From the NCBI GenBank assembly GCA_023246355.1, contig JAHFIQ010000001.1, forward strand, positions 350,247 through 414,246: a stretch of DNA of 64,000 bases, written 5' to 3'. This document shows, one piece after another, positions 591 to 44,677 of this stretch (positions are counted from its first letter, which is position 1; the number at the start of each line of letters is the position of its first letter). The position numbers and the translations under genes are program-made. The notes beneath the pieces are model-generated. The model was not told the origin of the DNA. It worked only from the letters and a program-made list of their open reading frames with translations, and did not search any database. This DNA is from Candidatus Uhrbacteria bacterium (GTDB lineage Bacteria > Patescibacteriota > Patescibacteriia > UBA9934 > GWF2-40-263).

Positions 591-1511
591 ATGAAAAGAC
601 TGCAACCATTCTTGATCAGCCTTTTCACGATGCTTCTCATTCCATCGGTTGCTTCTGCTGTTTCTGTTGCACCAACAAATCTTGAACTCACAGCTGAGCG
701 TGGTCAAACCATTTCCTCCAGCATCACTGTCCTGAATACACAAGCCTCCGATCAAGAATATTTCGTAGATCTCATGAGTTTTAAACCAAAGGACGATTCT
801 GGTACACCAGAATTTTTTTCTTCAGACGACTTCGCAAATGATTTAACAGGTTGGATACTATTTGACAGCAAGTCTTACATTGTTCCAGCTCTTTCTTCCT
901 CCGAAATTCCATTCCAAGTTGTTGTTCCAGATGATGTTCCATCTGGTGGCTATTACGCTGCCGTAACAGTTTCACCCGCACCAGCAGATGTTGTTGCTGC
1001 TAATGGGGCGATCATTGAAGCAAAAACAGCTGTACTCGTGCTACTGACCGTGGAAGGCGAGACGCAAGAAGATCTTGAGCTGTTGGATTTTGCTAGCACG
1101 GGTGGAGCTTTCGATCTCCCGCGACGTTCATTTCAGTTCCGATTACAGAATCAAGGCAATGTTCATGTCACACCGGTTGGAAACATCAAACTGACAGGTT
1201 TGTTTGGCCAAACGATTCTTGACCTTGATGCAAACAAAGATGAAGGTCGAGTGCTTCCAGCATCGACACGGATGTTTGCTGTGACGTCCAGCGATGAATC
1301 AACAAGTTGGTACGACACCGTCGCTTTTCAGCTCAGTCACCTCGCGATTGGTCCGGTCACAGCCACACTCGATCTCACATACGGAGAAAGTGGAGCGATT
1401 CAATCCTCACTTTCATTTTGGGTATTTCCCTGGCAGCTTCTTGTCACGCTCGTGGGCTTGCTGATCGTCTTGTGCGTTGGGTATCGATTCCTTAGACGAA
1501 AACGCTTGTAA
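591..1511 (+). CDS. DUF916-like (WxL-interacting / chaperone-like Ig-fold) membrane-anchored surface protein
   Basis: Signal peptide, 'SVAPT..EL', 'VPDDVPSGGYYAAV', 'NQGNVHVTP' motifs, C-terminal TM helix and basic tail. Confidence 0.65.
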   Translation: MKRLQPFLISLFTMLLIPSVASAVSVAPTNLELTAERGQTISSSITVLNTQASDQEYFVDLMSFKPKDDSGTPEFFSSDDFANDLTGWILFDSKSYIVPALSSSEIPFQVVVPDDVPSGGYYAAVTVSPAPADVVAANGAIIEAKTAVLVLLTVEGETQEDLELLDFASTGGAFDLPRRSFQFRLQNQGNVHVTPVGNIKLTGLFGQTILDLDANKDEGRVLPASTRMFAVTSSDESTSWYDTVAFQLSHLAIGPVTATLDLTYGESGAIQSSLSFWVFPWQLLVTLVGLLIVLCVGYRFLRRKRL

Positions 1512-1521
1512 AAAAATCTGT

Positions 1522-4500
1522 GTGTTTCTATTTAGAAGGCTCATTCAAACTCTCACACTAGCCATCGTGACTTTCACGATGTCTGCTGTGGTTGTTTCAA
1601 CAGCCAACGCGGCAACGATTACCGGAGTGAACGACTACCCAACCACGCTCCAGTCGTCCCAAGCTGCCAATCACACCGTGCTCTTTACAACACCAACAGG
1701 TGCAGCACTTGGCTCCACGATCACGCTTTCGTTTTCCACGCCGTTTGATACATCCACGATTACGGAAGACGATGTGGATGTGGCAGATGATGGAGTTGAT
1801 CTCACGACAGCTGCGACATGTGCAGGAACGGAACAGGCTTCTGTTTCTATCGCATCAGACGTTGTCACCATCACGATTTGTGCAGGTGATGGCGGCGCGA
1901 TTGCTGCCGCGTCTCAGATCACCATTGAGATCGGAACAAATGCCACTTCATCAGGAACAGGTTCAAATCGCATCACCAATCCGACTTCCACTGGAACCTA
2001 TTTCCTGAGCGTGGCTGGTACGTTTGGCGATGCTGGATCGATTGCGCTTCCCATTGCAGGAGATGATTCTGTATCCGTGACCGCTGATGTGGCTTCTCGC
2101 TCCAGTGGAACAGGAACAGGAGGCGGATCCTCGCCAACATCAGACACAACCGCTCCCACGATCAGCAACATCGTGGTGAGCAATGTGACGGAAACAAGCG
2201 CGACTATCACTTGGACCACAGATGAATCGTCCACCAGCTCGGTGAGCTATGGGATAACCAGCGACGCTGATGACTCGACGAGTTCCGATAGTTCATCCAC
2301 GACGTCCCACTCCACCACTCTGACAGGTCTTACCGCTGGGGAGACGTATTACTTTACGGTGAGCTCAACCGATAGCAGTGGTAACAGCGCGACTTCATCT
2401 GTTCAGTCATTCACAACGCTCGACGATACTGGTCCAGTGATTTCAAATGTGGAAGTCGTGAACATCACAACCACTTCTGCAACAGTCACCTGGACAACAG
2501 ATGAAGCCGCTGACAGTACCGTTTCCTACGGTGAGACCACGAGCTACGATTCATCAGAATCTGATAGCAGTCTTGTTACGTCGCATTCCATCACTCTGAC
2601 AGATCTCACTCCTGGGACCACGTACGACTTTCAAGTGCTGTCCTCAGATTTTTCTGGAAACCAATCGTACACAGATAACGACACATTTGAGACAGACGAA
2701 GACGGGACACCGACAAATGTTTCAGATCTCGCCGCAGATGCAGGAGACGAAACGATCGTTCTGACTTGGACAAATCCTGACGATGAAGATTTGGCTGGGG
2801 TTCTCATCCTTGTGTGCGTCAACGAATATCCAGACGGACCAAACGACGAAGATTGCACAGAGGTCGATGCGGGACTTGCTGAGTCTTACACACTCACAGG
2901 TCTCACAAACGGAACAACGTATTACATTGGTGTGTTCGCTTACGATGATGCAGGGCAATTTGCTTCTGGCGCTCTTGTGACAGCTGTCCCAAGTGCTTCA
3001 GAAAATGAGGTGCCCTCCGAAGAGACAACGGAGGCAGAAGAGGAACCTGGTACAGAAGAGCCAGGTGACGAAGAGACATCTGTTCCAGATTCCGGAACAG
3101 GTGAAGAAACAACTCCAGGTGAGGAACCCTCATCCGGAGAAGATCTTACGACTGGAGAGGCGTCAGAGGAACCTACCTCCTTGGGTGCGGAGGATGGGAC
3201 TTTGAGTGATGCCGATATCCAGTACTTTGTGGAAGAAGAATCACTTGAGCTGACCACGGACACCTCTGTGGTCGAAGTGCTTTCCGAAAGCACTGTGCTT
3301 ATTTCGATTCCCTCCTCGGAAATTTCAGATGACGCCACCTCTGTCTTGGTGACGATCGGTTCTGAAACATACCTCATGGTGTTCAATGAGGAGTCCGGTT
3401 CCTATGAAGCAGAAGTCATGCTTTCCGACGCGGACGGTGTGTACACACTGACCGTGACTGTCGCCTCAGGCGATGGGTCGGAGTCTGTTTCTTCATACCT
3501 GTACATCGTCAATCCAGGCGATGTCTACCAGGTCGTCGATGATGAAGAAGCAGCCGTGGCCGATGCAACAGTAACACTCTATGAAGTGGTAGATGGTGAG
3601 CTGATCGTTTGGGATGGTTCCCCGTACGGTCAGGAGAATCCCACTCCCACAGCGGCAGATGGTACGTTCGCTTGGTATGTTCCAAACGGAACATACGTCG
3701 TGGTCGTGACGGCTGAGGGGTTTGAAACAGCACAAACCTCACAGCTCGTAATCGATAACGGCATTGTGAATCCTAGGATTCTTCTGACGGCCCTGGCGGT
3801 GCCTGAGGAAGAACAAGGAACAGCTCTTGAAGAAGGAGAGACCACCTCCCTTATTCAAAACGTTCTCTCTGTCTCCTCGGTTGAGGCCTTGCAAGAGGCG
3901 CTCTCTCAACTGCGAGACATTCCAGGTGTAGAAACGGCCGCTGAGATTTCGACGCCCGTGCTTGCCCTTGGTGCAGGTGTGAGCTTGGTCGTGCTGTCTC
4001 TGGCCTACGATTTCCTGTCTCTTCTTCAATATCTTTTTACAGCGCCTCTCCTATTTTTGTGGCGCCGCAAGAGGAAAGGATACGGAGTCGTCTACAACGC
4101 GATTGGCAAAAAACCAATCGACTTGGCTCTGGTACGTCTGTACCAGCTGACAAACGGTGAGGAGGCGACGCCACGCTCCGGCCGCCTCCTCCAAAGTCGT
4201 GTTACCGACCGCGAAGGTCGCTACTACTTTCTTGTGTCCCCTGGACGGTATCGGTTGAGTGTCACCAAATCTGGGTTCGAGTTTCCCTCGGAGTATTTGA
4301 AAGGTGAGAACACCGATGGTCAGTACTTGGATGTGTATCATGGCGAAGTGATTGAGGTGAAGGATAAGGATGCGGTCATCACGGCGAATATCCCGATGGA
4401 TCCGTCACAAGCAGATGCGTATCAAACACCATCGGCTGTTGTGTGGCACAAACGTCTGCGCAAGCTTCAGCACAGCTTCTCAGCTCTCGGGATTGTGGCA

Positions 4501-4887
4501 GCACTTGCCTTTGCGATCATCCGTCCAACGCCTTGGTCAATCACCATGGTCTTCATCCAACTCGCGGTGTATCTGCTGGTGCGACGACTTGCCAAACCAT
4601 ACAAGCCCATGAACTGGGGAATCGTGTATGACAAAAACACGGGTCGGCCGTTAGCTCGTGTTGTCGCTCGTATCTTTGAGCCCAAGTACAACAAATTGCT
4701 CGAGACACAAGTGACAGATAGCAAAGGACGGTATGCGTTCTTGCTGGGACCAAACGAATACTTTGCGGTGTTTCAAAAAGATGGCTATCAGACCGCAGAA
4801 GTTCGACCGATCGATTACTCGGCACATGAAGAACCAGCGAACTTCGGTGAGACCGTTGCCCTTGAACTCAATCAAACCGCAACCTGA
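1522..4887 (+). CDS. Large surface protein with fibronectin type III / Ig-like repeats and carboxypeptidase-regulatory-like domains
   Basis: Signal peptide; 'SATITWTTDE...YG...LTAGETY' FN3 repeats; acidic linker; 'VTDREGRY'/'VTDSKGRY' motifs; C-terminal TM segments; start codon uncertain. Confidence 0.75.
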   Translation: MFLFRRLIQTLTLAIVTFTMSAVVVSTANAATITGVNDYPTTLQSSQAANHTVLFTTPTGAALGSTITLSFSTPFDTSTITEDDVDVADDGVDLTTAATCAGTEQASVSIASDVVTITICAGDGGAIAAASQITIEIGTNATSSGTGSNRITNPTSTGTYFLSVAGTFGDAGSIALPIAGDDSVSVTADVASRSSGTGTGGGSSPTSDTTAPTISNIVVSNVTETSATITWTTDESSTSSVSYGITSDADDSTSSDSSSTTSHSTTLTGLTAGETYYFTVSSTDSSGNSATSSVQSFTTLDDTGPVISNVEVVNITTTSATVTWTTDEAADSTVSYGETTSYDSSESDSSLVTSHSITLTDLTPGTTYDFQVLSSDFSGNQSYTDNDTFETDEDGTPTNVSDLAADAGDETIVLTWTNPDDEDLAGVLILVCVNEYPDGPNDEDCTEVDAGLAESYTLTGLTNGTTYYIGVFAYDDAGQFASGALVTAVPSASENEVPSEETTEAEEEPGTEEPGDEETSVPDSGTGEETTPGEEPSSGEDLTTGEASEEPTSLGAEDGTLSDADIQYFVEEESLELTTDTSVVEVLSESTVLISIPSSEISDDATSVLVTIGSETYLMVFNEESGSYEAEVMLSDADGVYTLTVTVASGDGSESVSSYLYIVNPGDVYQVVDDEEAAVADATVTLYEVVDGELIVWDGSPYGQENPTPTAADGTFAWYVPNGTYVVVVTAEGFETAQTSQLVIDNGIVNPRILLTALAVPEEEQGTALEEGETTSLIQNVLSVSSVEALQEALSQLRDIPGVETAAEISTPVLALGAGVSLVVLSLAYDFLSLLQYLFTAPLLFLWRRKRKGYGVVYNAIGKKPIDLALVRLYQLTNGEEATPRSGRLLQSRVTDREGRYYFLVSPGRYRLSVTKSGFEFPSEYLKGENTDGQYLDVYHGEVIEVKDKDAVITANIPMDPSQADAYQTPSAVVWHKRLRKLQHSFSALGIVAALAFAIIRPTPWSITMVFIQLAVYLLVRRLAKPYKPMNWGIVYDKNTGRPLARVVARIFEPKYNKLLETQVTDSKGRYAFLLGPNEYFAVFQKDGYQTAEVRPIDYSAHEEPANFGETVALELNQTAT

Positions 4888-4899
4888 TCGCCCACATCT

Positions 4900-7800
4900 A
4901 TGTTCTTATCAGGGAGGAAACAATCTCTCGCCCTTGTCCTCATCACCCTCGTGTCGATGATGAGCTTTGTGTTTTCTTCCCAAGCCGCTGCGCCGACCAA
5001 CATCGTGACCTATCAAGGCCGATTGTTGAATTCAAATTCTGTCCCGGTTTCTGACACGAGCCTTTCCATGAAATTTTTCTTCTATACGGCTGTCACGGGT
5101 GGAACCTGTGTCTGGTCTAACTCTTCCGCGACATGCAACAGCAACACACCAGCTTCCACCACCGCTCGAACCGTCACACTCACCTCAGGACTCTTCACCC
5201 AAAATTTGGGCGACACGGGAGATTCCTTCGCCGCCATTTCCGATTCGATTTTTGCAGATAACTCAACCTTGTTTTTAGAAGTGATCGTTGGCAGTGAAAC
5301 GCTTTCCCCTCGTCGCCGACTCACCGCGGCTCCTTATGCTCTGAACGCACAGACATTGGATGGGATTGATTCTGGATCTTTTCTGCGCGACACAGGGGAT
5401 ACAGCCACGGGGGATTATGACCTGACCGGAGCCACTCTCTCGGGAGGTTCTCCGATTGTGTTGGAAGGTGCCTCCGCAAATAGCTTTGAAACAACACTGG
5501 CTCTGACAGATCCAACAGCTGATCGAACGATCACCTTTCAAAATGGCTCTGGCACGGTCGCGTTTTTGACAGACGTCACGGGTGGAGGTTTATGGGAGTC
5601 AGGCACATTTGTCTACGAAGATGATTCTGCTGTTGTGGTCGGCGCTGATGCCGCTTTCACGTATGCCAGTGGTGGTGTGGGAGATTTGCGTGTGGCAGAT
5701 CAGCTGGAAGTGCTTGATGATATTTTCGTTGATAATGATTTGGTTGTCGGCGCCTCGACGTCATCTACAGAAACGATTGCAAACAGTTCATTTAGTTTGG
5801 GCGGCAACGACTTCTTTGCGGCAAGTGATGTGGGTGTGGAAGGAAACGTCTATATCGACGGCGCGATTGATTTGGTTGGCACGGCGACGGTCGGTGACCT
5901 TGCCTGTACGGATTGTTTGGACTTTGCAGAACTTGTCGATGCCTTGTCTTTGGATGCCTCGACGTCCATAGCACTTGACGGAAGTGAAACGTTTTCGATT
6001 ACCAACGGCGGTACAGGCAATGTCATCACCAACCTCTCTTCCACGGGAGACTTTGTGATTCAAGATAATGGCGCGGCCATTCTCACGGTTGCGGACGATG
6101 ATGTTCTTACCTATTCAACGGACTTAACAACGACCAGTGCGATTGGATTCACAGGCAACAGTCTTACCACAGGAAGTCTGCTAAACCTTTCTGCCACAGG
6201 TCTCACAACCGGAACAGCTTTGACTGTGACGGCCAGCAATGTGAGCACAGCCAACTCGGCTTCAGTGCTGAATCGTTTCGTGTTGACCAACAGTCAATCG
6301 ACCATCGCCAATACAGGGATCACCGGTTTGTCTGTTGGGTTTACCAATGCCCCCTCCATTGCTGGAAACACAGAGCGAGTTGTGTCCATTAGCAACGAGT
6401 CCACAACCAACACAACAGATAACCTCGTTACAGCGTTGCTTGCTTTGGATAATGCTGATACATCGACGACGGGATCTACGGTTGTCACAGATGCGATCTC
6501 GATCGCCGTCTCAGGAGCGATTGCCAACGGCATCGTGGACGCGATCGACGCCTCGGATGCCAACATTACCAACGCCCTCAACATCGGAACCAACACGATT
6601 CTTGGTACGACCGGTGTGATTGATTTTAGCAGTTTTGATGTTGATGGGAGTGGGAATGTCACGGCGAATGATTTCATCTGCACGGACTGTGTGGACTTTA
6701 CCGAGATGATCGATGCCATGTCTTTGGATGCTTCAACATCGATCGCGATGGACGGTTCTGAAACCTACACCCTCACCAACGGCGGTACAGGCAATGTCGT
6801 CACCAACCTCTCCTCTACGGGAGACTTTGTTATCCAGGATAACGGTGCGGCCGTTCTCACCGTTGCCGATAATGATGTCTTTACCTATACAACGGATTTG
6901 ACGACCACCAGTGCGATGACACTTACAGGCAACAGCCTCACCACCGGGAGTCTTTTGAATCTGTCATCAACAGCTCTTACAACGGGTTCAGCCCTGAGTG
7001 TTGTGGCGACCAATGCCAACACAGCCAATTCCTCCACACGTTTGAGTCAATTCTCGTTTACGAACTCTCAAGCAACCGTTGCAAATGGAGATATTGCCGG
7101 ACTGTTTCTTAATTTTACGAACAGTCCATCGATTGGTGGCAACACCGAGCGTGCCATGTCGATTGTGAATGCTCCAACATCCAACACAACGGATAATGCC
7201 GTGGCTGCGCTTCTGTCTTTGGATAACGCTGATACGTCAGGAACAGGTTCTACGGTTATTACCGATGCCCTGTCGATCACGGTGTCAGGAGCGATTTCAG
7301 ATGGGATCGTGGACGCGATTGATGCTTCCGATAGCAACATCACTAACGCTCTCAATGTTGGTGCCAACACGATTACAGGAACGACCGCGGTGATTGACTT
7401 CAACAGCTTTGATGTGGATAACAGCGGTATTGTCACGGCGAGTGACTACGTGTGCACGGACTGTATCGACTTTGCTGAGCTCATCGATTCCATGTCTCTG
7501 GACGCGTCTACCTCTATTGCGATGGATGGCTCAGAAAACTTCACCGTGACCAATGGTGGAACAGGAAACATGGTTGTGAACCTGTCATCGACAGGCGACT
7601 TTGTGTTGCAGGATTCTGGATCACCCTTTTTCTCTATCAATGACAACAAAGTTATTTCTTATTCCACAGACCTTGCAACAAGCAATGCTGTGGCTCTCAC
7701 CGGCAACAGTCTTACCACCGCCAACCTGTTGACCCTGACAAGCACCGCACTCACGACAGGATCAGCGCTCTCAGTTACCGCCTCAAATACCAATACAGCC

Positions 7801-10800
7801 AATTCGATTTCGAGCATGGCCGTTTTTGCCCTTACCAACGCTCAATCAACAGTAGCCAATGATGATGTCAATGGTTTGGTTGTGAGGTTCACCAACAATC
7901 CGTCGGTTGCTGGAAACAATGAGCGCGCCATGGTGGTTACAAATCTTGCGACGAGCAATACCACAGACAACGCTGTCCAAGCTCTTCTCAATTTGGATAA
8001 TGGAGATACCAGCGCCACAGGTTCCACGGTTGTCACAAACGCCTTGATCGTCTCTGTTTCAGGATCGATTGCCGACGGCATTATTGATGCAGTCGATGCT
8101 TCTGACTCCAATATCACCAATGCTCTGAACATCGGATCAAACATCATTACAGGAACCACCGGTGTGATTGATTTCAATAGCTTTGATGTTGGACCGGTTG
8201 CTAGTGCCAATAGTGGGACGACAACTTCCATTGTTGATGTTGGATACGTCACTCCGGTGGATACCTCTGGAACAAATATTCACCAAGGCATCACTATTGA
8301 CATGGATATCGGTAACTCAACAGGCGGTACCAATAGTGTGAATGCACTTGAACTCGAGGGAATGACTGGAGATCCGGAGGTTGCAAACGTTCATGCGATT
8401 GATATCGGGGCTCTCACAGGATCTGCCGCGACAAATGAAACCGCTCTCCAAATTGGAACAGGGTGGGATGCGGATATTGCCTTCTTAAATGCCACTCAGG
8501 CAAGTCTGCGTATCCCAAATGGTTCACGACTTCAGTTTCAAGACTCGACGTCAACGGAAATTTTGACGCTTCAGGACGTTTCAAATTCTTTAAATCACAA
8601 CTTGGCCATTGATGCTGATACAGGGCTGTCATTTGATAGCAATGCGGATTCCGATGCAGACATCACGACTCCTACAGCCGAAGCTCTGCGCATCACGCCA
8701 GGTGGAGTTGGAGATGTTATTTTTACGATCGATGCAGACAGCAATGTCCAGATGACCGCAGGTGTTGCGCCGGGTGTGGACATGCTCTCGCTCTCAAACA
8801 GTGGTTTTGCAACAACCACAACGGATGTGAACGGGCTGCAAATTGATTTCAGTTCAACAGGTGCTGCCGCTCAGGCACTGTTTGTTGAAACGACGTATGT
8901 TGGTGGTGCGACAGATGCGCTTAACTTTGACGGTATTTTTATCGGAGATATCAATCCAACCAATGCCGCGGGGACGGACACGGTTGCGGGAATCCACATT
9001 GGAACCATCACAGATCCAGGCGCGAACATTACCTCCACTGGTCTTCGTATTGACGCAGGATATGATGCTAACATTGCCATCATTGACTCGTCATCTGTGT
9101 TCGATATCACCAACGGTGGCACGCTGGCGTTTCGAGACACCTCAAATACGATCATGCTCCTGACAGATAACGGTTCCGATGGGGTGCTGAGCATCAATAA
9201 CATTTCAACCGCTGATCCTGCGGTCAATGTGTACGACGTGGCTGTGAATACCACGATCGATATTGGTGGTGTGACGAACGATTCTGCCAACAGCGTGAAC
9301 ATTGCGACCAACGCGACCAGCGGAGACACGATTTCGATTGGAAACACGGCCGGCGGAACCAACGTCACGATCACGGCCGGTGGAACGATTGATTTGGAAG
9401 GGTCCGTGACAGCGGATTTGGCAGCCATTGGTGCCACACAGTTTGCGCTCTGTCACACCAATTCTGACACCAACGACGAACCGATCGGTGACTGTTCGGG
9501 TGCGCCAACCGCTGACTATGCGGAGCAATATCCTGTGGAGACTGGCATTTCGTATGGCGACATTGTGGTGCCTGGGGCGCGGGAAGTGACAACCACTGAA
9601 GGCCAGACCATTACACAACTTGTGAAATCTTCTGAGCCGTATCAAGGTCCCATCGCTGGAATCGTTTCCAATAACTACGGAGACTTTACCTCGGCTGGGT
9701 ACAACATTGAGGCGGGTGACAATCCCATGCCCATTGCCCTTGTCGGACGTGTTCCTGTGAAGGTGACAAACGAAGGCGGTGCCATTCAAGTAGGTGACTA
9801 TCTCACAACTTCTTCCACAGCTGGTCGTGCCATGAAAGCCAGTAAAGTCGGTCGCGTGATCGGCATGGCTTTGCAGAATTGGGATGGCGTGAGCGATACA
9901 ATCATGGTGCAGGTGAACAACTCTTGGTACATGGGAGAGGTGATTGGAACCGACGGTGTCTCAACGCTTGTCACGGACAATGTTGTTGTGTCCTCATTTG
10001 CAACCGCAACCGCTGAGGCACCGACCTTTGACTCCTACGGGCTCTCACTGCGAGGTTCTGTTTGGAATGGATCAGAAGCAGAAGCCGTGGAGATGATGAT
10101 GAAGAACGTTGTTGATAGTGAAGATGAGTATCGACTCAGCATTCGCAATACATCCGAAACCGAAGTTGCCTACATCACCGACGAAGGGACCATGAAGATT
10201 GCTGGTGACATGATCGTTGGTGGAAATTTGTATCCGTCGGATCGTGGAGTTCCTCAAACCGACAAATATATTTACTACGATGGATCAGAAGGGTCAGCTG
10301 GGGACTTCATGCGCACCAATGCCAAAGGTTGGTCCACGGGATCTTACGACTTTGCCGAAATGTTCCCGTCGTCTGAGACACTTGAGGCTGGTGAAGTAGT
10401 CGCGTTCTCCGGATCAGGCCATGACGTTATTCGTGCAACAGGTGCACAGGGAGAGCAACTTGCTGGTATCGTTTCCACACGTCCAGGATTTTTGGCTGGC
10501 GAGAACATCGAAGGTTCCTATCCAATCGCGCTTGCTGGCCGTGTCCCAACAAAGGTGAGTGAAGAGAATGGTGCGATCGCGATTGGCGATCCTCTGACAT
10601 CAAGTGCAACAACAGGCCTGGCCGTGAAGGCGAGTGAGAGTGGTCAGATTGTTGGTTATGCCTTGGAGGCGTATGACGGATCTCAGTCTGATGATCTGAT
10701 CCTCGTCTATGTGAATATCGGGTACTGGCAAGATGATACGGTGGTGCAAAACACAGCCTCAGAAGTTTCAGGCAATACAAATTTCTCTGCACTCAACATG

Positions 10801-11439
10801 ACCGGCAACATCTCAATGAACTCTTATGAGATAAACGGGATTGGGAAGCTCACCGGCATGGGAGATTCGTGGTCACTCGCATCCGACGGAACGCTCACAA
10901 CTTCCGGTTTGTTGAAGACGGTCATCGATTCTTATCAAAATGAAAAAGTCGAGACGGTCGCGGTGACCTCTCCTGAAGTGATGATTACACTCACTGGAAC
11001 GGCCGTTCTTGAAAACGATCAACTCGAAATTCGATTTGAAGATGTGATTCCTGAATACAATGATGTTATTTCTGCTGACGCGCCGATTCGCGTGTTTGTG
11101 ACGCCACATGGACCTGTTTCCTTGTACGTCTCTGAGTCTGACCAAAATCATTTCGTGGTGACGCGGTTCCAAGGTGACTTGGATGTTGAGTTCGATTGGA
11201 TGGTGAGCGCGTATCGAAAAGGATATGAACCTGAGGAGGAGGTAGAAGAGGTGGATGAGGTAGACATGGTAGACCCAGGCTTCAGCATGGGTGCGACTGA
11301 AGAAACTGAATCATCTGACACAGAATCAGAAATGACAGCCGATTCTGCATCTCCGGAGAGTCCGGACACAACCATTGTTGATCAAGTGATTGAATCTGAT
11401 GGCGGCGCAACAGCCGAGCCCGAGACACAATCACCCTGA
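4900..11439 (+). CDS. Giant secreted fibre/adhesin-like protein (2179 aa) with three long repeats and two peptidase G2/intramolecular-chaperone-like domains
   Basis: Signal peptide; N-terminal 'YQGRL'; T/S/N/D/G-rich beta-rich body; two 'D[YF]AE...GIVS...PIAL.GRVP.KV..E.GAI..GD.LT.S' domains. Confidence 0.75.
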   Translation: MFLSGRKQSLALVLITLVSMMSFVFSSQAAAPTNIVTYQGRLLNSNSVPVSDTSLSMKFFFYTAVTGGTCVWSNSSATCNSNTPASTTARTVTLTSGLFTQNLGDTGDSFAAISDSIFADNSTLFLEVIVGSETLSPRRRLTAAPYALNAQTLDGIDSGSFLRDTGDTATGDYDLTGATLSGGSPIVLEGASANSFETTLALTDPTADRTITFQNGSGTVAFLTDVTGGGLWESGTFVYEDDSAVVVGADAAFTYASGGVGDLRVADQLEVLDDIFVDNDLVVGASTSSTETIANSSFSLGGNDFFAASDVGVEGNVYIDGAIDLVGTATVGDLACTDCLDFAELVDALSLDASTSIALDGSETFSITNGGTGNVITNLSSTGDFVIQDNGAAILTVADDDVLTYSTDLTTTSAIGFTGNSLTTGSLLNLSATGLTTGTALTVTASNVSTANSASVLNRFVLTNSQSTIANTGITGLSVGFTNAPSIAGNTERVVSISNESTTNTTDNLVTALLALDNADTSTTGSTVVTDAISIAVSGAIANGIVDAIDASDANITNALNIGTNTILGTTGVIDFSSFDVDGSGNVTANDFICTDCVDFTEMIDAMSLDASTSIAMDGSETYTLTNGGTGNVVTNLSSTGDFVIQDNGAAVLTVADNDVFTYTTDLTTTSAMTLTGNSLTTGSLLNLSSTALTTGSALSVVATNANTANSSTRLSQFSFTNSQATVANGDIAGLFLNFTNSPSIGGNTERAMSIVNAPTSNTTDNAVAALLSLDNADTSGTGSTVITDALSITVSGAISDGIVDAIDASDSNITNALNVGANTITGTTAVIDFNSFDVDNSGIVTASDYVCTDCIDFAELIDSMSLDASTSIAMDGSENFTVTNGGTGNMVVNLSSTGDFVLQDSGSPFFSINDNKVISYSTDLATSNAVALTGNSLTTANLLTLTSTALTTGSALSVTASNTNTANSISSMAVFALTNAQSTVANDDVNGLVVRFTNNPSVAGNNERAMVVTNLATSNTTDNAVQALLNLDNGDTSATGSTVVTNALIVSVSGSIADGIIDAVDASDSNITNALNIGSNIITGTTGVIDFNSFDVGPVASANSGTTTSIVDVGYVTPVDTSGTNIHQGITIDMDIGNSTGGTNSVNALELEGMTGDPEVANVHAIDIGALTGSAATNETALQIGTGWDADIAFLNATQASLRIPNGSRLQFQDSTSTEILTLQDVSNSLNHNLAIDADTGLSFDSNADSDADITTPTAEALRITPGGVGDVIFTIDADSNVQMTAGVAPGVDMLSLSNSGFATTTTDVNGLQIDFSSTGAAAQALFVETTYVGGATDALNFDGIFIGDINPTNAAGTDTVAGIHIGTITDPGANITSTGLRIDAGYDANIAIIDSSSVFDITNGGTLAFRDTSNTIMLLTDNGSDGVLSINNISTADPAVNVYDVAVNTTIDIGGVTNDSANSVNIATNATSGDTISIGNTAGGTNVTITAGGTIDLEGSVTADLAAIGATQFALCHTNSDTNDEPIGDCSGAPTADYAEQYPVETGISYGDIVVPGAREVTTTEGQTITQLVKSSEPYQGPIAGIVSNNYGDFTSAGYNIEAGDNPMPIALVGRVPVKVTNEGGAIQVGDYLTTSSTAGRAMKASKVGRVIGMALQNWDGVSDTIMVQVNNSWYMGEVIGTDGVSTLVTDNVVVSSFATATAEAPTFDSYGLSLRGSVWNGSEAEAVEMMMKNVVDSEDEYRLSIRNTSETEVAYITDEGTMKIAGDMIVGGNLYPSDRGVPQTDKYIYYDGSEGSAGDFMRTNAKGWSTGSYDFAEMFPSSETLEAGEVVAFSGSGHDVIRATGAQGEQLAGIVSTRPGFLAGENIEGSYPIALAGRVPTKVSEENGAIAIGDPLTSSATTGLAVKASESGQIVGYALEAYDGSQSDDLILVYVNIGYWQDDTVVQNTASEVSGNTNFSALNMTGNISMNSYEINGIGKLTGMGDSWSLASDGTLTTSGLLKTVIDSYQNEKVETVAVTSPEVMITLTGTAVLENDQLEIRFEDVIPEYNDVISADAPIRVFVTPHGPVSLYVSESDQNHFVVTRFQGDLDVEFDWMVSAYRKGYEPEEEVEEVDEVDMVDPGFSMGATEETESSDTESEMTADSASPESPDTTIVDQVIESDGGATAEPETQSP
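5880..8190 (+). repeat. Three tandem 774-bp (258-aa) intragenic repeats
   Basis: 'CTDC[LVI]DF' begins at 5905, 6679 and 7453 (exact 774-bp spacing); outer boundaries approximate. Confidence 0.85.
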
Positions 11440-37200: not shown

Positions 37201-37233
37201 AAAAACGCGCTGTCGAACATGGCAGCGCGTTTT
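37201..37233 (+). terminator. Intrinsic terminator after rpoC
   Basis: aaaacgcgctgtc-gaacat-ggcagcgcgtttt hairpin. Confidence 0.75.
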
Positions 37234-37245
37234 GGTTGAGCAGCC

Positions 37246-37274
37246 TTGACATGAGTGGTTGCTGCGGTTAAGCT
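37246..37274 (+). promoter_or_regulatory. Putative sigma70 promoter of the Ubl operon
   Basis: TTGACA-N17-TAAGCT, followed by AGGAG SD before 37320. Confidence 0.6.
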
Positions 37275-37319
37275 CAGGCCTCGCGTTTTCGGACGCGATG
37301 CTCATTACAGGAGTCAATC

Positions 37320-38456
37320 ATGCCTCCAAAAAAGGCTCAAGTGGACCTGTGGCCAGATGAGCTCAGGTCTGCTCTCTCAGGCATACATGTCGACGACAAT
37401 GGGATTCAACAGAGCTGGGATGCTGTACTTGATCGTCTCCCCACCTTTGAGGAGATCATGCAGGTGACGTTTGCTCCTGAAGGACGCGCCTTGCCGTATG
37501 CTTTTGCATTCATTGCTGAACGTCTGCGGCCCTTTGTTCAGCTCCCCGTGGAGCTGGTCTCACGCAGATCATGGGAGACGGAAGCGCACTCACGCAAGGG
37601 AACGTTTCGTGTCATCTTCAGGTCCAGAGGGGTAGAACTTGCAGCCCCCAGCCAGATCTTCGGAATTGACTGTCAGAAATGTGTCAGCCTTTTGAAGGCT
37701 GCCAGGAAGAGGACAGGTCAAAAAGAGATCCGCGATCCTGACACGGGCTGCACCATCGCAACGCTTGATGCAAGGCACAACACCTTGCAGGTGCATTTCT
37801 GTGAGGTGGCACATCCGACTGAGGATTGGGGTGAGCGCCATCGTGAGATTTTTGCGTCTCTGGTGTGGCGCGTCATTCCCCTCTTACCCGAACCTCTGCT
37901 CACGCCAGAGCTCTGGGTGCAGCAAAACAAGGCATCACGCCGCGAAGCCGTTGAGCGGGTGTACCGTGCCTATCGAGTGCAGGCAAAAACGAGTCAGGAG
38001 GGAGATCTAGATGAACTCACTCGGCTGACCACGTCCTTGGCGGAAGTCGGTGTTGTTTCCAACCTTCAAGCAGAGGTTGCTCAGCTGCAGATCACGGTCC
38101 TTGGACTCACATCGCTTGTGAAGAAGCAGGAAGAAAAAATCAGGTCGGAGCTTGAAGCGCTGTTGAAGCGTTCGGATGTTGCTTCAATTCATCTGTGGGG
38201 ATCAGTGCTCGTGTGTGCTGTGGTGAAACCAGATTCTGCGTGGACGATTGTCGTGAACCGGGCACAGATAGGGGATCCGGTTCGTTGGTACAAGCATGAA
38301 GGGAGTACGCGCCAGGCGTATGCCCCGTCCCAGTACCGAATGCTCATTCCTCTTGTTGAACTGTTGAGCAAGGGGGAGTGGGGCACGGTCATCACAAGCG
38401 CGATTGCCGCAATCAGCACATCCCGCCTTCAACCCATCCACCTGCAAGAGGAGTAG
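37320..38456 (+). CDS. Coiled-coil protein, probable inactive paralog of the E2-like protein at 40256
   Basis: 378 aa, collinear similarity to 40256-41392, lacks the PH...C motif. Confidence 0.55.
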   Translation: MPPKKAQVDLWPDELRSALSGIHVDDNGIQQSWDAVLDRLPTFEEIMQVTFAPEGRALPYAFAFIAERLRPFVQLPVELVSRRSWETEAHSRKGTFRVIFRSRGVELAAPSQIFGIDCQKCVSLLKAARKRTGQKEIRDPDTGCTIATLDARHNTLQVHFCEVAHPTEDWGERHREIFASLVWRVIPLLPEPLLTPELWVQQNKASRREAVERVYRAYRVQAKTSQEGDLDELTRLTTSLAEVGVVSNLQAEVAQLQITVLGLTSLVKKQEEKIRSELEALLKRSDVASIHLWGSVLVCAVVKPDSAWTIVVNRAQIGDPVRWYKHEGSTRQAYAPSQYRMLIPLVELLSKGEWGTVITSAIAAISTSRLQPIHLQEE

Positions 38457-38458
38457 AC

Positions 38459-39193
38459 ATGGTCAAACCCCCCAGAGCACCCATTCCGCTGATGACCAGA
38501 GCTTCGCCATCCACAACAGTGCGCGTGCTCGAACTTCCGCCCACGGTCTACTTCGCCAATCGTGCGATGGAAGACATGCGCATTCTCGTAGCCCTTTGCC
38601 CCGAGGAAGTGGGATGGTTGGGAACGGCCAGAAGGGTCGGCCGAACGTTCTACGTGGATGAGATCTTCTTGCCCAAGCAGCATGCAGGTCCTGCGCATAC
38701 CACCATCACCACCGAGGGACTGAGTCAGCTCATGGATGAGCTCACCCGTGCAGGCCGCGCCAAGCTTTTGGACCGTATGTTTTTCTGGGGTCACTCCCAT
38801 GCCAACATGCCGGCCGATTTCTCGGGCCAAGACGACCTGCAGATGGCCAAGCTCTCGAGGCATTCCCCCTGGTTCATCCGGGCGGTCTTGAACAAGTACG
38901 GAGACATGAAGGTGGATGTGTTCATGCGCGAAGAGGGCATGGCCTACTTGAACGTGCCATGGGTGGTTCACGCCCCTGTTCCCAAACAGCGCCTTGCCTT
39001 TTGGCAGGAGCGTCTGGCTCTGCAAATGCAAAGCCCTCCCAGGCGCAAGCACGGCCAAAAAGGTCTTCCTGCGCACATGGTTGGCAGAGGTGAAGCCGAA
39101 CTGGATTCCCAAGAAGTGTCAGAGGGTCTCGATCCTCCAGATGAAGCGCAGTGGGAAGCTGCGCTCGAACGTCTGGGAAGGGGGGAACCATGA
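38459..39193 (+). CDS. JAB/JAMM (MPN+) metallopeptidase
   Basis: 'EVGWLG' and exact H-x-H-x7-S-x2-D motif (HSHANMPADFSGQD); GAGGAG SD. Confidence 0.88.
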   Translation: MVKPPRAPIPLMTRASPSTTVRVLELPPTVYFANRAMEDMRILVALCPEEVGWLGTARRVGRTFYVDEIFLPKQHAGPAHTTITTEGLSQLMDELTRAGRAKLLDRMFFWGHSHANMPADFSGQDDLQMAKLSRHSPWFIRAVLNKYGDMKVDVFMREEGMAYLNVPWVVHAPVPKQRLAFWQERLALQMQSPPRRKHGQKGLPAHMVGRGEAELDSQEVSEGLDPPDEAQWEAALERLGRGEP

Positions 39194-39885
39194 TCAGCAT
39201 TGCTCGTCATCACACCGTGTTTGATCCCAGGACCTTTGAGGAGAATCGGGTTGACGTGATTGGTGCCGGTGCGCTAGGATCCCGGCTGACCTTGGAACTT
39301 GCCAGGCTCGGGATTCAGGAAATTCATGTCTGGGACTTCGACAAAGTTTCGGACGTGAATCTTGCCAACCAGGCCTATGCCAGGAAGGATGTGGGCATGC
39401 CAAAGGTTCAGGCTCTCGCTCGTTTGGTGCTGGAGCACACCGGTGGTCATGTTGTTGCCCATGAAGAGGCTTGCACGGGAGAATCAGAATTGGGAGAGGT
39501 CGTCTTTCTCATGACTGATTCCCTTGTCTCGCGCCGTGAGGTCTTTGCGGGAGCTCTCAGGTTCAACCTCGTAACCCGGCGCCTCATCGAGGCGCGTCTG
39601 GGAATCGATCAGGGTCGGGTGTATTCACTCGATCCCAACCAGAGTGCCGATGTTGACGCCTACGCGCCGACCTTGAACGGCATCGCCAAGTTGGCGGTCA
39701 ATCCGTGTGGCTCTCCGATTTCCATCGGCGCCACAGCCGGCATGGCCGTCGCTCTTGCTACCTGGATGTTCATCCGATGGTGGGGAAAGGAACAAGATCA
39801 GACATCGACAGATGAACTGGAGAACGAAGTGGTTTTCGCCCTGCACCCTGTGATGGTCATGGGGAGCAGTTTCAACCAAACGTGA
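39190..39885 (+). CDS. ThiF/E1-like adenylyltransferase
   Basis: VIGAGALGS, 'DFDKVSDVNLANQ', 'GMPKV', 'TDS', candidate catalytic Cys in 'NPCG'; ATGA overlap with the JAB stop. Confidence 0.92.
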   Translation: MISIARHHTVFDPRTFEENRVDVIGAGALGSRLTLELARLGIQEIHVWDFDKVSDVNLANQAYARKDVGMPKVQALARLVLEHTGGHVVAHEEACTGESELGEVVFLMTDSLVSRREVFAGALRFNLVTRRLIEARLGIDQGRVYSLDPNQSADVDAYAPTLNGIAKLAVNPCGSPISIGATAGMAVALATWMFIRWWGKEQDQTSTDELENEVVFALHPVMVMGSSFNQT

Positions 39886-39915
39886 GTGGGCGATCACACA
39901 AAGACAGGAGTGGTC

Positions 39916-40185
39916 ATGGCAGGCAAGGATAAGGCGGGAGCGAAGAAGGCAGAAGCGAAGAAGGCGGAAGGCGGCAAGATCAGCCTCCAGGTGTTCCCTG
40001 GCAGGCGTGTGCAAGTGGACATCGAAGAGGGCGTCCCCTTCACCCTGGCCAAGCTGCTGGAACAGGAGGGCTTGGATGCGGCGCAGACGACCGTCAAGGT
40101 CAACGGTGAGGATGTCGCCGATCTCGAGCGTGTGCTCGTAAGCGGCGACAGCGTCGTTCTTCTCGAGAACGTCGAGGGCGGCTAG
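39916..40185 (+). CDS. Ubiquitin-like (beta-grasp) protein with C-terminal Gly-Gly
   Basis: 'TLAKLL...VKVNGE...LVSGDSVVLLENVEGG*'; AGGAG SD. Confidence 0.9.
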   Translation: MAGKDKAGAKKAEAKKAEGGKISLQVFPGRRVQVDIEEGVPFTLAKLLEQEGLDAAQTTVKVNGEDVADLERVLVSGDSVVLLENVEGG

Positions 40186-40198
40186 GTCGCAGGGAACG

Positions 40199-40243
40199 AA
40201 AAACGGCGGGGCGCTTGTGGACGATCCGCGAGCCCCCGTTTTT
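40199..40243 (+). terminator. Hairpin plus T tract between the Ubl and E2-like genes
   Basis: gggg-cgcttgtgga-cga-tccgcgagc-ccccg-ttttt. Confidence 0.55.
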
Positions 40244-40255
40244 ACTTGAGGGAGG

Positions 40256-41392
40256 GTGATGGTCATGAAAATCACGTTTGTCGGAAAGACACGATGGGAA
40301 CGGGCAAGGGAGGAACTCACCTCTAACATCCGGGAACACTTGTTTCCGGTCGTCCATAAGGACGTGGTCGTACATTTCCCCATGGAGGAATCAGAGCCTC
40401 ACGGCATTGAGCCCATGGATGGATTGCTCGAGGCGTCAGGGGCATTTCACTTGTTTCTCTTCGGGAGGTTTCTTCCCGGGTCTCACATTCTGAGCTCTCA
40501 AAGGTGGGGTTCCTACCGTACTGTGCTTGACGGAACACCCGTTGGATTTCCCATCTTCGTGCATGGAAGCCAGACGCCGATCGCTGAGTGGATAGGGAAT
40601 GTTGTCTGCTTGCGACTTCGAATGCAATACAGTGACGACTCACCCTATTCCCTCTGGGGCGAATTCGTTCGCTCTACCGCACAGACTCTGAGGAGTGCAC
40701 AGGGAGCAGATCCATCGCCTGTGGAGGGAGTAGGTTCAATCGCTCAGGCGTTGATGCCTTCTTCTTGGGCAGAGGAATGCAAGAAATGGCAGGCTCAATT
40801 TGACAACAGAGAAGGGAGAAGGGCTGACGCACTTAAACTCTTCCATCGTGCGACCGAAGAGGCCGCGCGTTTCGCTGCTCGAGTGCGTGAACAAACGGAA
40901 CAGGCGTTCGATACAAGTGAGTTCCAGGCCGAACTCGATCGTCTACGGGCGCATCCACTTTTTGATGACGCGTACTTTGTCCGAAACGGAGATCCTTCCG
41001 ACACAGACATTAAGTCTCCCGCGTTTGTGGTGAGGACCAAGGCCGTCGTCGTGAAGGTCAAAGCGCTCAACAGCGACGCCATGGAAGAGCGCCTGATCGG
41101 ACGATTCGAGATTTCCATTCCTCTTGATCCAAACCATGATTGGGGGGACTGCGTGCATTTTTACAACCTCGATCGATTGGTCGCCAATCAGCATGGTCCG
41201 CACATTGATGCAGATGGCTGTCCCTGCTTTGGCACAGGAACGTCGACCGTCGATAGGCTCTATGGGGAGGGACGCATCGCAGAGCTCGTCAAGTTCTGTC
41301 TTCACTACCTCACGCGAGTCAACACGGACGATCAGTGGGGGGAGAATATCCACAAGTGGCCCTTGGTTCAGGAAGCTCATCCTTCAAGCTAA
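40256..41392 (+). CDS. Coiled-coil protein with C-terminal prokaryotic E2-like (UBC-fold) domain
   Basis: 'HGPHIDADGCPCFG' resembles E2 HPN/HPH...G.xCL; followed by 'CLHYLTRVNTDDQWG'; operon context. Confidence 0.75.
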   Translation: MMVMKITFVGKTRWERAREELTSNIREHLFPVVHKDVVVHFPMEESEPHGIEPMDGLLEASGAFHLFLFGRFLPGSHILSSQRWGSYRTVLDGTPVGFPIFVHGSQTPIAEWIGNVVCLRLRMQYSDDSPYSLWGEFVRSTAQTLRSAQGADPSPVEGVGSIAQALMPSSWAEECKKWQAQFDNREGRRADALKLFHRATEEAARFAARVREQTEQAFDTSEFQAELDRLRAHPLFDDAYFVRNGDPSDTDIKSPAFVVRTKAVVVKVKALNSDAMEERLIGRFEISIPLDPNHDWGDCVHFYNLDRLVANQHGPHIDADGCPCFGTGTSTVDRLYGEGRIAELVKFCLHYLTRVNTDDQWGENIHKWPLVQEAHPSS

Positions 41393-41455
41393 CGCACACG
41401 GTCCCAGCGGCCGTGTTTTCTTTTTGGGGTCATTCCATTAAAATAGGGAACAATT

Positions 41456-41938
41456 ATGCACGAAGCTCGCATTATCATGGGATTGGATCCAGGCTATGGA
41501 CGCATGGGGTTTGGGGTCATTGTCGTTGAAGGATCAAACATGGAACTGGTCGACTACGGCGTGATCACCACAACCAGTGGCGATGCGTTTGAAAATCGAT
41601 TGCTCCATATCGGCAATGACCTTCATGATTTATTTGCGCACCACGAGCCTCACGCGGTTGCAATTGAAAAACTTTTTTTTGGAAAAAGTTCTACGACCGC
41701 GATGAACGTGGCCCATGCCCGCGGTGTGGCCCTTCTCATGGCAGCACAATCTGGATGTCCGGTGTTTGAGTTCACACCAGCGCAAGTAAAAAAAGCCATT
41801 ACCGGAGACGGCAAGGCTCCCAAGATGGCCATGCAAAAAATGGTGATGCAACTGCTTGCTCTTCCCAAAATTCCCAAACCCGACGATGCCGCCGACGCGC
41901 TGGCGGTCGCGATCACAGCGAGTACGAAGAGGTGGTAA
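41456..41938 (+). CDS. ruvC: Holliday junction resolvase RuvC
   Basis: 'GLDPGYGRMGFG', 'AIEKLFF', 'PDDAADALAVA'. Confidence 0.96.
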   Translation: MHEARIIMGLDPGYGRMGFGVIVVEGSNMELVDYGVITTTSGDAFENRLLHIGNDLHDLFAHHEPHAVAIEKLFFGKSSTTAMNVAHARGVALLMAAQSGCPVFEFTPAQVKKAITGDGKAPKMAMQKMVMQLLALPKIPKPDDAADALAVAITASTKRW

Positions 41939-42345: not shown

Positions 42346-42380
42346 AAAAAAAAATCACCCCGAAGTGGGGTGATTTTTTT
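42346..42380. terminator. Bidirectional intrinsic terminator
   Basis: A-tract-tcacccc-gaagt-ggggtga-T-tract between convergent genes. Confidence 0.75.
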
Positions 42381-43143
42381 ATGAGAGCTTCGAGGAAAGC
42401 GTTCCCCAAAGTTGTTCGAAAATGACTCGGTGAAAGTCTGCGAATTCTTTCGATTCAATAATGATAGCCATTTTTTCCTTCCAGGAGGCAACAAGGATTT
42501 TGTTGTTGTAAATGTTGATCTCAGGAGTGAACGTTTCACCTTGGGGAAGAAATCGTGTGGCACGCATTTCAGCTTGATCAAGTTTTGTGCGCTCGATGGA
42601 GACGGCATTTCGTGGAAAAATGGCTCTGATGTACACACCCTTGGCCGCGCGACGTTTGTAGTAGGTTGGAAAGAAGTTTGGTAATGCTTCGTGAACGGTT
42701 TCGACGTTTGCGTAAGCCAGGATTGGTTGCTTAGACGTAAGAGTGTCCTCATAGGCCTCACGCATCCCTTTCTCTCCTTCGTAAAATTGGACTCTCGGCT
42801 TACTTGTAGCCTTGTTTTGAAGTGAGACGAGCTGAGGAATCAGATGTTTGATCTGATTTTTTTGCTTGGTGAGTCGTTCTGTTGTGTTTTCAATCTCACG
42901 ATCAACGTAACTGAGTAGCCGACCAGGATCAAGCGCTCCAAAGTACGTTTGGGATCCTTTTTTGTACTGATTCACCACTCCCTTTTTAAGGAGCAAACCA
43001 AGGATATCGTAAACGGTCGTTCTGTTCACGTCTGCCTTTTTGGCAATTTCTCCCGCTTTTGCGCTCCCAAGTTCCAGGAGGGTCATGTAGATGACCGTTT
43101 CCTTTGATGTGAAGCCAAGTTCTTTGAGGATTTCTTTTAGCAT
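42379..43143 (-). CDS. TrmB-family transcriptional regulator
   Basis: 'LGFTSKE..IY..LLELG...EIAKKA.VNRTTVYDIL..L', 'VQFYEG'. Confidence 0.9.
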   Translation of the reverse strand: MLKEILKELGFTSKETVIYMTLLELGSAKAGEIAKKADVNRTTVYDILGLLLKKGVVNQYKKGSQTYFGALDPGRLLSYVDREIENTTERLTKQKNQIKHLIPQLVSLQNKATSKPRVQFYEGEKGMREAYEDTLTSKQPILAYANVETVHEALPNFFPTYYKRRAAKGVYIRAIFPRNAVSIERTKLDQAEMRATRFLPQGETFTPEINIYNNKILVASWKEKMAIIIESKEFADFHRVIFEQLWGTLSSKLS

Positions 43144-43342: not shown

Positions 43343-44677
43343 ATGCCCAACTCAAAAACCCTCTTGATTCAACTGCGATACCCCCATGGTGGCAAATCAC
43401 AGGCCTACTTGCCTGGTGGCATGCTGAATTTCGCGAGCCGTCTGATCGTGGCAGGCGTGGATGTACGTCTTGTCGATCTCAATCTCGACGAGCTTTCCAT
43501 GGCGGATATCATCTGGGCACAGACCATCTGTATCAGTGTGCTAGGAACGCCCTATATTCCATCCGCGATCCGTCTGGTAGAAGAATTGAGGACACGAGGC
43601 TTCACAGGAAAGATTCTCGTGGGTGGTCAAGGTGTTGAGCGGTTTAACCAAGCCGCGTTCGATCGACTGTTTTCTCAGAATGCGATTCAGGCTCATGAGC
43701 AGATGGATCTGCAGGCGATCTTCGGTGCTGAGCTTCCAACACTGCAGGAAGTCTCCATGGTTCCAGCTCTCAAACTTCTCTGCGAAGAACGGCGTGCTCT
43801 TTACCTCTCACAGGAATTCCCGCTCTATCTGTCGCAGGGTTGCAGATTCAGCTGTAATTTTTGTGCAGCAGCAAAGGATCGGCCCGAACGTTACCGTCTG
43901 AAGGAAGCGTTTGAGGGTGAACTCAACTACATCATCTCTGAGCTCATAAGGATTGATGTGTATCGACTGGAAGTTTACATCTCCAATCTTGATGCGTTTC
44001 AAAATCCCGTTCAGCTTGAGCGGATGCTCGAGATGATTCATGATCGCTGTAAGCGCTCTGGGATCGAGGTGCATGTAAGGTGTCTTTCGACCATGGCGAT
44101 GTTCGCGTTTGCTGCACGTAAGGATCCTGAATTGCCAGCGCGACTGAAGTCCTATGGTCTGAGAATCATCGCCTTTGGTGCCGACGGTGGCGACAAGCGT
44201 GTCTGGGCTCGCATGGGCAAGCGCCACAACTCGCTCAAAACGCTCGAGGAAGCTGTGAAGTCCGCGCAGGCCGCTGGGTACCAAGTCGAGATCCTCATGG
44301 TGATTGGCTTTCGTGATGATGATGCCTTGGCGATGTATCGTGCGCTCAGGCTCAGCTTGTACTGGGCAAAACGCGGGTGCATTCTGCGGCCCTATCTTGG
44401 CAAACCCCCCATCGACCACATGGAGTGGGAAGAGCTCAAGCAGTATGTTGAGAGCCCGGATCTGATCGTGAATCTCGACTATGCCGCGTTCGGATCGAGG
44501 AGTACTCATCCCAATGGTCGACAACGACTCATGGTCAACGCAACGTATCTCGCTGTGATGGCAGCGCTCACACCTTTTGGACTCAACACGACGTTCCCGA
44601 TTCTCCCTCTTGAGGGGTCGCGTGTTCGCCGCGCACTCGCGCACACCGTCAACCGGTTCATGCCAGCTGATCGTTAG
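43343..44677 (+). CDS. B12-binding-domain radical SAM protein
   Basis: 'SQGCRFSCNFC' CX3CX2C; N-terminal 'VRLVDLN...ILVGG' cobalamin-binding-like domain. Confidence 0.82.
   Translation: MPNSKTLLIQLRYPHGGKSQAYLPGGMLNFASRLIVAGVDVRLVDLNLDELSMADIIWAQTICISVLGTPYIPSAIRLVEELRTRGFTGKILVGGQGVERFNQAAFDRLFSQNAIQAHEQMDLQAIFGAELPTLQEVSMVPALKLLCEERRALYLSQEFPLYLSQGCRFSCNFCAAAKDRPERYRLKEAFEGELNYIISELIRIDVYRLEVYISNLDAFQNPVQLERMLEMIHDRCKRSGIEVHVRCLSTMAMFAFAARKDPELPARLKSYGLRIIAFGADGGDKRVWARMGKRHNSLKTLEEAVKSAQAAGYQVEILMVIGFRDDDALAMYRALRLSLYWAKRGCILRPYLGKPPIDHMEWEELKQYVESPDLIVNLDYAAFGSRSTHPNGRQRLMVNATYLAVMAALTPFGLNTTFPILPLEGSRVRRALAHTVNRFMPADR

Follow-up and report, generated by a model that had tools for sequence, protein, structure and literature searches.

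Layout of the operon

The window analysed here, a 64,000-nucleotide stretch from Candidatus Uhrbacteria, a tiny groundwater bacterium, holds an operon of five neighbouring genes predicted to encode a ubiquitin-like protein conjugation system. Five open reading frames (ORFs) run in the same direction between rpoC (ending at 37188) and ruvC (starting at 41456, identified by its Pfam RuvC match). An original prediction, made from the sequence alone, had placed five co-oriented genes led by Shine-Dalgarno (SD) sequences here. The ORF coordinates agree, and an SD-like purine-rich stretch precedes each ORF. The JAB and E1 ORFs share an ATGA overlap. G+C content is slightly higher in the operon genes (0.54-0.62) than in the flanks (0.51-0.52), and all products are soluble by hydropathy. 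The features are as follows, numbered within the window.

37202..37233 (+): hairpin 3' of rpoC, likely an intrinsic terminator; 13-bp stem, z -3.99
37246..37319 (+): likely promoter (TTGACA, 17 nt, TAAGCT), leader hairpin and SD; hexamers and leader conserved
37320..38456 (+): gene 1, pseudo-E2, 378 aa; N-domain, predicted coiled coil, UBC-like domain minus His and Cys loop
38459..39193 (+): gene 2, JAB/JAMM metalloprotease, 244 aa; predicted maturase and deconjugase of the ubiquitin-like protein (Ubl)
39190..39885 (+): gene 3, ThiF-like E1, 231 aa; single domain, Cys173, no CxxC pairs
39916..40185 (+): gene 4, beta-grasp Ubl, 89 aa; Lys/Ala-rich N-tail, conserved Gly88, then Gly89
40205..40240 (+): GC-rich hairpin and T run between Ubl and E2; terminator-like, possible attenuator
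40265..41392 (+): gene 5, predicted active E2, 375 aa; N-domain, long helix 166-211, UBC-like domain, His313, Cys321
41396..41416 (+): terminator-like hairpin and T run 5' of ruvC, kept in all three Uhrbacteria sequences

The hairpin after rpoC likely sets the operon apart from rpoBC transcription. The operon had also been credited with a promoter of its own. In favour, TTGAC...TAAGCT and the leader hairpin, with a varying spacer, follow this strong terminator and are kept in all three Uhrbacteria sequences (the window and loci L001 and L002). Against it, a consensus promoter scan of the window does not list this promoter, whose -10 element fits three of six consensus positions. Within the leader, a conserved inverted repeat (37275-37312), whose loop length differs among the three sequences, is a candidate RNA hairpin or operator. 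The hairpin between Ubl and E2 keeps its sequence in all three, with z values of -1.5 in the window, -3.7 in L001 and -3.1 in L002. Gene 5 had been read from GTG 40256. The gene and its E2 motif are there, but ATG 40265 (or 40259) is the more likely start, because three homologs align from the Met at 40265.

Genes of the predicted cascade

The JAB protein has the intact JAMM motif first read from its sequence (E50, H112-S-H114-x7-S122-x2-D125), and these residues are invariant in 67 of 67 aligned relatives. Its match to the Prok-JAB model (E=5.5e-4) lies under the model's cut-off; the family profile matches Rpn11 (E 1.2e-5) and BRCC36. The E1 likewise bears out its first description as a ThiF/E1 protein with GxGxxG, a free Cys and no zinc pairs. 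It carries GAGALG and matches ThiF (E=1.9e-16), Cys173 is invariant in 35 of 35 sequences, and CxxC occurs in none of the 35. In alignment with E. coli ThiF, the family E1 Cys falls on the Cys of the matching motif.

The Ubl matches the ThiS family at 23.6 bits, above the cut-off, and ends in EGG. The claim of a beta-grasp protein ending in GG therefore stands as a description, but its di-glycine sense is probably wrong. Among 77 aligned Ubl domains, the C-termini are Gly-Asn in 60, Gly-Ala in 6, Gly-Gly in 3 (the Uhrbacteria set) and other in 8. The window Ubl ends VEGG where a related genome has IDGN, and Gly89 stands where the family has Asn. This GG is probably the family Gly with a one-residue cap, and not a ubiquitin-type di-glycine. 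Because Gly-Asn dominates the family ends, because VEGG and IDGN compare in this way, and because BilA likewise extends past a conserved Gly by a tail that is cut off by its JAB (consulted part of Chambers et al., bioRxiv 10.1101/2023.09.26.559546), the mature tag probably ends at Gly88. An untrimmed GG could also work as the Ubl end. Elsewhere in the family, Ubl domains with long C-terminal extensions occur (L003:8734-9348, L007:9112-9924, L044:6010-6984, L045:3642-4691, L068:8959-9942), with no Pfam match in the four extensions scanned; they are possibly precursors from which a JAB cut releases another protein.

The best E1 matches are ThiF, and the Ubl also matches SAMP, TtuB and MoaD structures. 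Both points would suit a sulfur-carrier module, in which the E1 turns a JAB-matured Ubl into a thiocarboxylate that feeds a cofactor or tRNA pathway, and the coiled-coil proteins do not act as E2s. We consider this very unlikely. No sulfur acceptor, rhodanese or desulfurase is found among the recurrent neighbours or in the window. In five incomplete related genomes, MoaE is found in none and ThiG as one partial match in one. The absence of thi, moa and CD-NTase families, claimed at the outset, holds among the 44 other window ORFs and in 2 more. An E2-fold protein with invariant His and Cys also travels with the E1.

This protein is the product of gene 5. The E2-like motif first noticed there (P-H313-I...G-x-P-C321-F-G) aligns with that of Rad6, and across 158 aligned domains the His is kept in 98% and the Cys in 97%. 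The canonical His is invariant in 67 intact domains, a set chosen for His and Cys. Whether the C-terminus adopts a UBC fold was a doubt attached to the original prediction. The domain is modelled with an E2/RWD fold at a predicted local distance difference test score of 87, its best structure matches are ubiquitin E2s, and Spc24/25 is also among the fold matches. As modelled, gene 5 combines a UBC fold with an HPN-like motif and a Cys about 8 residues past it. No BilB chain is among the matches listed for the E2 family, by sequence or by fold, in the comparison with BilB and CEHH families.

A wider family with a probably inactive E2 twin

An E1 profile search found 69 genome loci, from Patescibacteria, Obscuribacterales/Melainabacteria and few others, and 9 viral loci. 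JAB lies before E1 in 76 of these 78 loci, and the 2 exceptions begin near contig ends. E2 is found in 71 loci, Ubl in 61 and all four genes in 60, so the co-conservation on which the first reading depended is present. The window operon is a branch of a widespread uncatalogued family, not confined to this genome. When 100 related genomes were searched from each side, E1 was found in 6 and E2 in 6, with 5 common to both; the system is therefore patchily distributed, and its genes travel together. Of 61 genomes around an Obscuribacterales genome, 12 have E2 matches, always two or four. Among named homologs the closest come from Candidatus Uhrbacteria (L001 and L002), where the operon also ends at ruvC and the upstream DNA lacks rpoC. 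Locus L051 has the same order as the window, twin-JAB-E1-Ubl-E2; the commonest order in Melainabacteria loci is Ubl-E2-JAB-E1. None of the protein-family libraries searched covers this family, and a literature search, with subscription papers and supplementary tables outside its scope, turned up no description of it.

The E2 proteins of the family have long coiled coils and reach 3-4 copies. Of the 71 loci with E2, 65 have one with His and Cys, and 40 of them also have a degenerate copy, the two being fused in 8. The two Uhrbacteria loci are not counted among the 40, since the profile does not pick up their twin. Cys is retained in 17 of 39 degenerate domains.

Gene 1 is such a twin. Genes 1 and 5 were first described as two flanking coiled-coil paralogs. 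They show no pairwise similarity, but they are related through family profiles. The C-terminal 110 residues of gene 1 match an E2 profile, built from 117 family E2 domains all from non-Uhrbacteria loci, at 95.4% (HHalign, E 1.7e-8; no more than 1.8% in 30 shuffles). Against a profile of the family N-domain that was seeded with gene 5, its N-terminal region reaches 97.8% (E 1.1e-12; no more than 2.5% in shuffles). In the alignment APS-x-Y replaces APH, the G-x-x-C loop is deleted, and neither the catalytic His nor the Cys is found. Because both regions match and the catalytic residues are gone, gene 1 is a full-length, catalytically stripped E2 paralog and not a second active E2.

Could gene 1 be a decayed duplicate, idle beside four genes that form the working system? 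That many loci show one E2 only, and that gene 1 shares no pairwise similarity with gene 5, would fit. We find it unlikely. The ORF is intact and 38-68% identical in three other sequences, with the C-terminal domain the best conserved part. A quick tree places 61 of the 63 intact E2 domains to one side of a branch (support 92). Gene 1 lies outside that side on a long branch, adjoining a degenerate domain, and not with the Uhrbacteria E2. Degenerate copies cluster apart from intact ones, needing 5 changes for the active state versus 33 in shuffles, and the fusions in 8 loci join the two types. Its position in the tree is compatible with an old degenerate subfamily, short of proof.

Two variants of the family stand apart. 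A divergent Patescibacteria locus (L092:6938-13381, G010:C5) has an AAA+ gene, degenerate, intact and degenerate E2 domains, JAB, E1 and a Ubl ending GS. Its AAA+ gene, just 5' of the E2 run by eye, differs from the Clp type described below and is unique among the loci. In viral loci L070-L072 and L078, a second cassette about 3-7 kb on has more Ubl repeats, ending GA, and a second JAB; in L070 and L071 it also carries a second divergent E1.

Several neighbours recur. The viral loci adjoin terminase, helicase, dUTPase and SMC-like genes, and no known defence family recurs among 31 neighbour proteins tested. A Ser/Thr kinase lies near the operon in 10 loci (L052, L054, L056, L058, L059 and others), with a leucine-rich repeat in L056. 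Beyond ruvC and pyrB, L001:6997-8370 holds 2 ORFs that resemble LAGLIDADG homing endonucleases by eye. In the window, a B12-binding radical SAM protein (43343-44677) adjoins a TrmB-family regulator (42379-43143) and pyrB. Further upstream, 1477-11436 holds a large fn3/carboxypeptidase-regulatory protein and then a 2179-aa ORF without Pfam match.

Proposed mechanism and place among bacterial systems

Conjugation of proteins has been shown in bacteria only for Cap2 of CBASS (cyclic-oligonucleotide-based antiphage signalling system), Bil and Bub, according to the consulted part of Ye et al. (bioRxiv 10.1101/2024.11.21.623953); the comparisons below likewise draw on parts of the cited papers. BilABCD types I and II share with the window four separate genes, for Ubl, Cys-E2, JAB and Cys-E1, with no E3, and a conserved Gly followed by a short tail on the Ubl. 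The Bil order, Ubl-E2-JAB-E1, is the one found most often in Melainabacteria loci and is not that of the window. Bil E1 has IAD-AAD-CYS domains (Chambers et al., bioRxiv 10.1101/2023.09.26.559546), whereas the window E1 is one 231-aa ThiF domain without CxxC pairs, and the window E2, at 375 aa, has an N-domain, a coiled coil and a dead twin. Although the set of four genes is there, Bil type I/II membership fails on E1 architecture.

Class 6d, which we take to be PRTRC, has stand-alone Ubl, JAB, E1-like and E2-like genes, with JAB adjoining E1, as in the window. In its E2 the canonical His is missing and a His follows the Cys, and a JAB-N domain precedes its JAB (Iyer, Burroughs, Aravind 2006, PMC1779556). 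In contrast, the window family keeps the His in nearly all E2 domains, and the window JAB domain, which begins no more than about 30 residues from the start codon, leaves no room for JAB-N. PRTRC and Prok_Ub models match none of 102 E2, 67 JAB and 77 Ubl domains at E<=0.05, and the window E1 scores 31 bits against the PRTRC cut-off of 144.75. The His-bearing E2, the lack of JAB-N and the lack of a PRTRC match rule out this class.

Bub (6E/DUF6527) has a Ubl of 1-3 beta-grasp repeats and JAB processing in common with the family. Its chemistry runs through Tyr/Ser oxyesters, its genes are fused and BubE belongs to it (Ye et al., bioRxiv 10.1101/2024.11.21.623953), whereas the window E1 and E2 keep their cysteines. 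The kept Cys, the lack of BubAB/CD or BD fusions and the lack of a DUF6527 match exclude Bub. Type II CBASS and 6A-MBL are also rejected, since PADLOC E1-E2 models fit the E1 part only and the window has no CD-NTase or metallo-beta-lactamase. In E1 build, Cys chemistry, and fusion and cyclase features, the architecture is therefore unlike Bil, Bub or CBASS, as first proposed.

We consider it likely that the operon is a self-contained ubiquitin-like conjugation cascade. JAB would trim the Ubl to the conserved Gly88 (step 1). The E1 would then adenylate the Ubl and hold it as a thioester on Cys173 (step 2). The coiled-coil E2 would take over the Ubl on its Cys321 (step 3) and join it to target lysines through an isopeptide bond (step 4). 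JAB would take the Ubl off again, reversing the tagging (step 5). Each chemical step is highly probable, and the trimming site at Gly88 somewhat less so. The twin would most likely pair with the active E2 and stand in for an E3 by selecting or placing the target; we put such a complex at about even chances. Mms2/UEV is a Cys-less partner that works with Ubc13. There too an active E2 stands beside a Cys-less variant; here both have N-domains and coiled coils, and the likeness is an analogy only. The reversible tagging first proposed is supported, since the E2-like fold of the model and the co-conservation go against two of the conditions named as refuting it, but gene 1 is catalytically stripped, the GG is probably no ubiquitin-type di-glycine and the operon is not unique to this genome.

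The absence of an E3 or effector gene from the operon could also mean that the Ubl goes mainly onto the system's own coiled-coil proteins or itself, controlling an E2/twin filament or scaffold as effector. Long coiled coils on an E2 that expands in copy number would fit, and structural heterodimers such as Spc24/25 are likewise made of a coiled coil with an RWD head. These points are all architectural, and Bil, also without E3, still modifies outside targets (Ye et al., bioRxiv 10.1101/2024.11.21.623953). This closed arrangement seems improbable to us.

One gene family dominates among the neighbours of the operon in other loci.

L006, L009-L014, L016-L020 and others; e.g. L032:8881-11367: Clp-type AAA+ ATPase directly after E1

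It follows E1 on the same strand, after a gap of 20-227 bp, in 28 of the 78 loci (27 full length, 1 cut), mostly labelled Obscuribacterales or Melainabacteria. These largely represent one lineage and therefore are not 28 independent events. Both of the genomes checked have other Clp genes as well, which makes this ATPase an additional paralog there. Docking to ClpP requires an IG[FL] loop, and the consensus of the 27 has none after the second ATPase motif. The window has no such AAA+ gene. A bolder, tentative reading joins these parts into a fourth bacterial ubiquitination pathway. If it is true, the coiled-coil heterodimer of E2 and dead twin would fill both roles, E2 and E3, as a bacterial counterpart of Ubc13-Mms2. 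The Melainabacteria ATPase, without its docking loop, would pull tagged proteins apart like p97/Cdc48, and epibiotic bacteria of the candidate phyla radiation and large phages would turn the system on the cells they exploit.

By its features the family appears Bil-like in its working, yet outside Bil, Bub, CBASS and class 6d, with a predicted function. Its distinctive traits are a minimal E1, a canonical His/Cys E2 and a recurring dead E2 partner. Since hydropathy marks every product as soluble, the set lends itself to reconstitution in vitro, which would test how a cascade without E3 chooses targets and whether active/inactive E2 pairs predate eukaryotes. Nothing in the analysis favours phage defence over stress or host-interaction roles. 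Because the spread is patchy and viral copies exist, a role in conflict or stress is likelier than housekeeping. Its retention by genomes of about 1 Mb suggests that the system brings a true advantage, and its presence in viral contigs points to both parties in a conflict making use of it.

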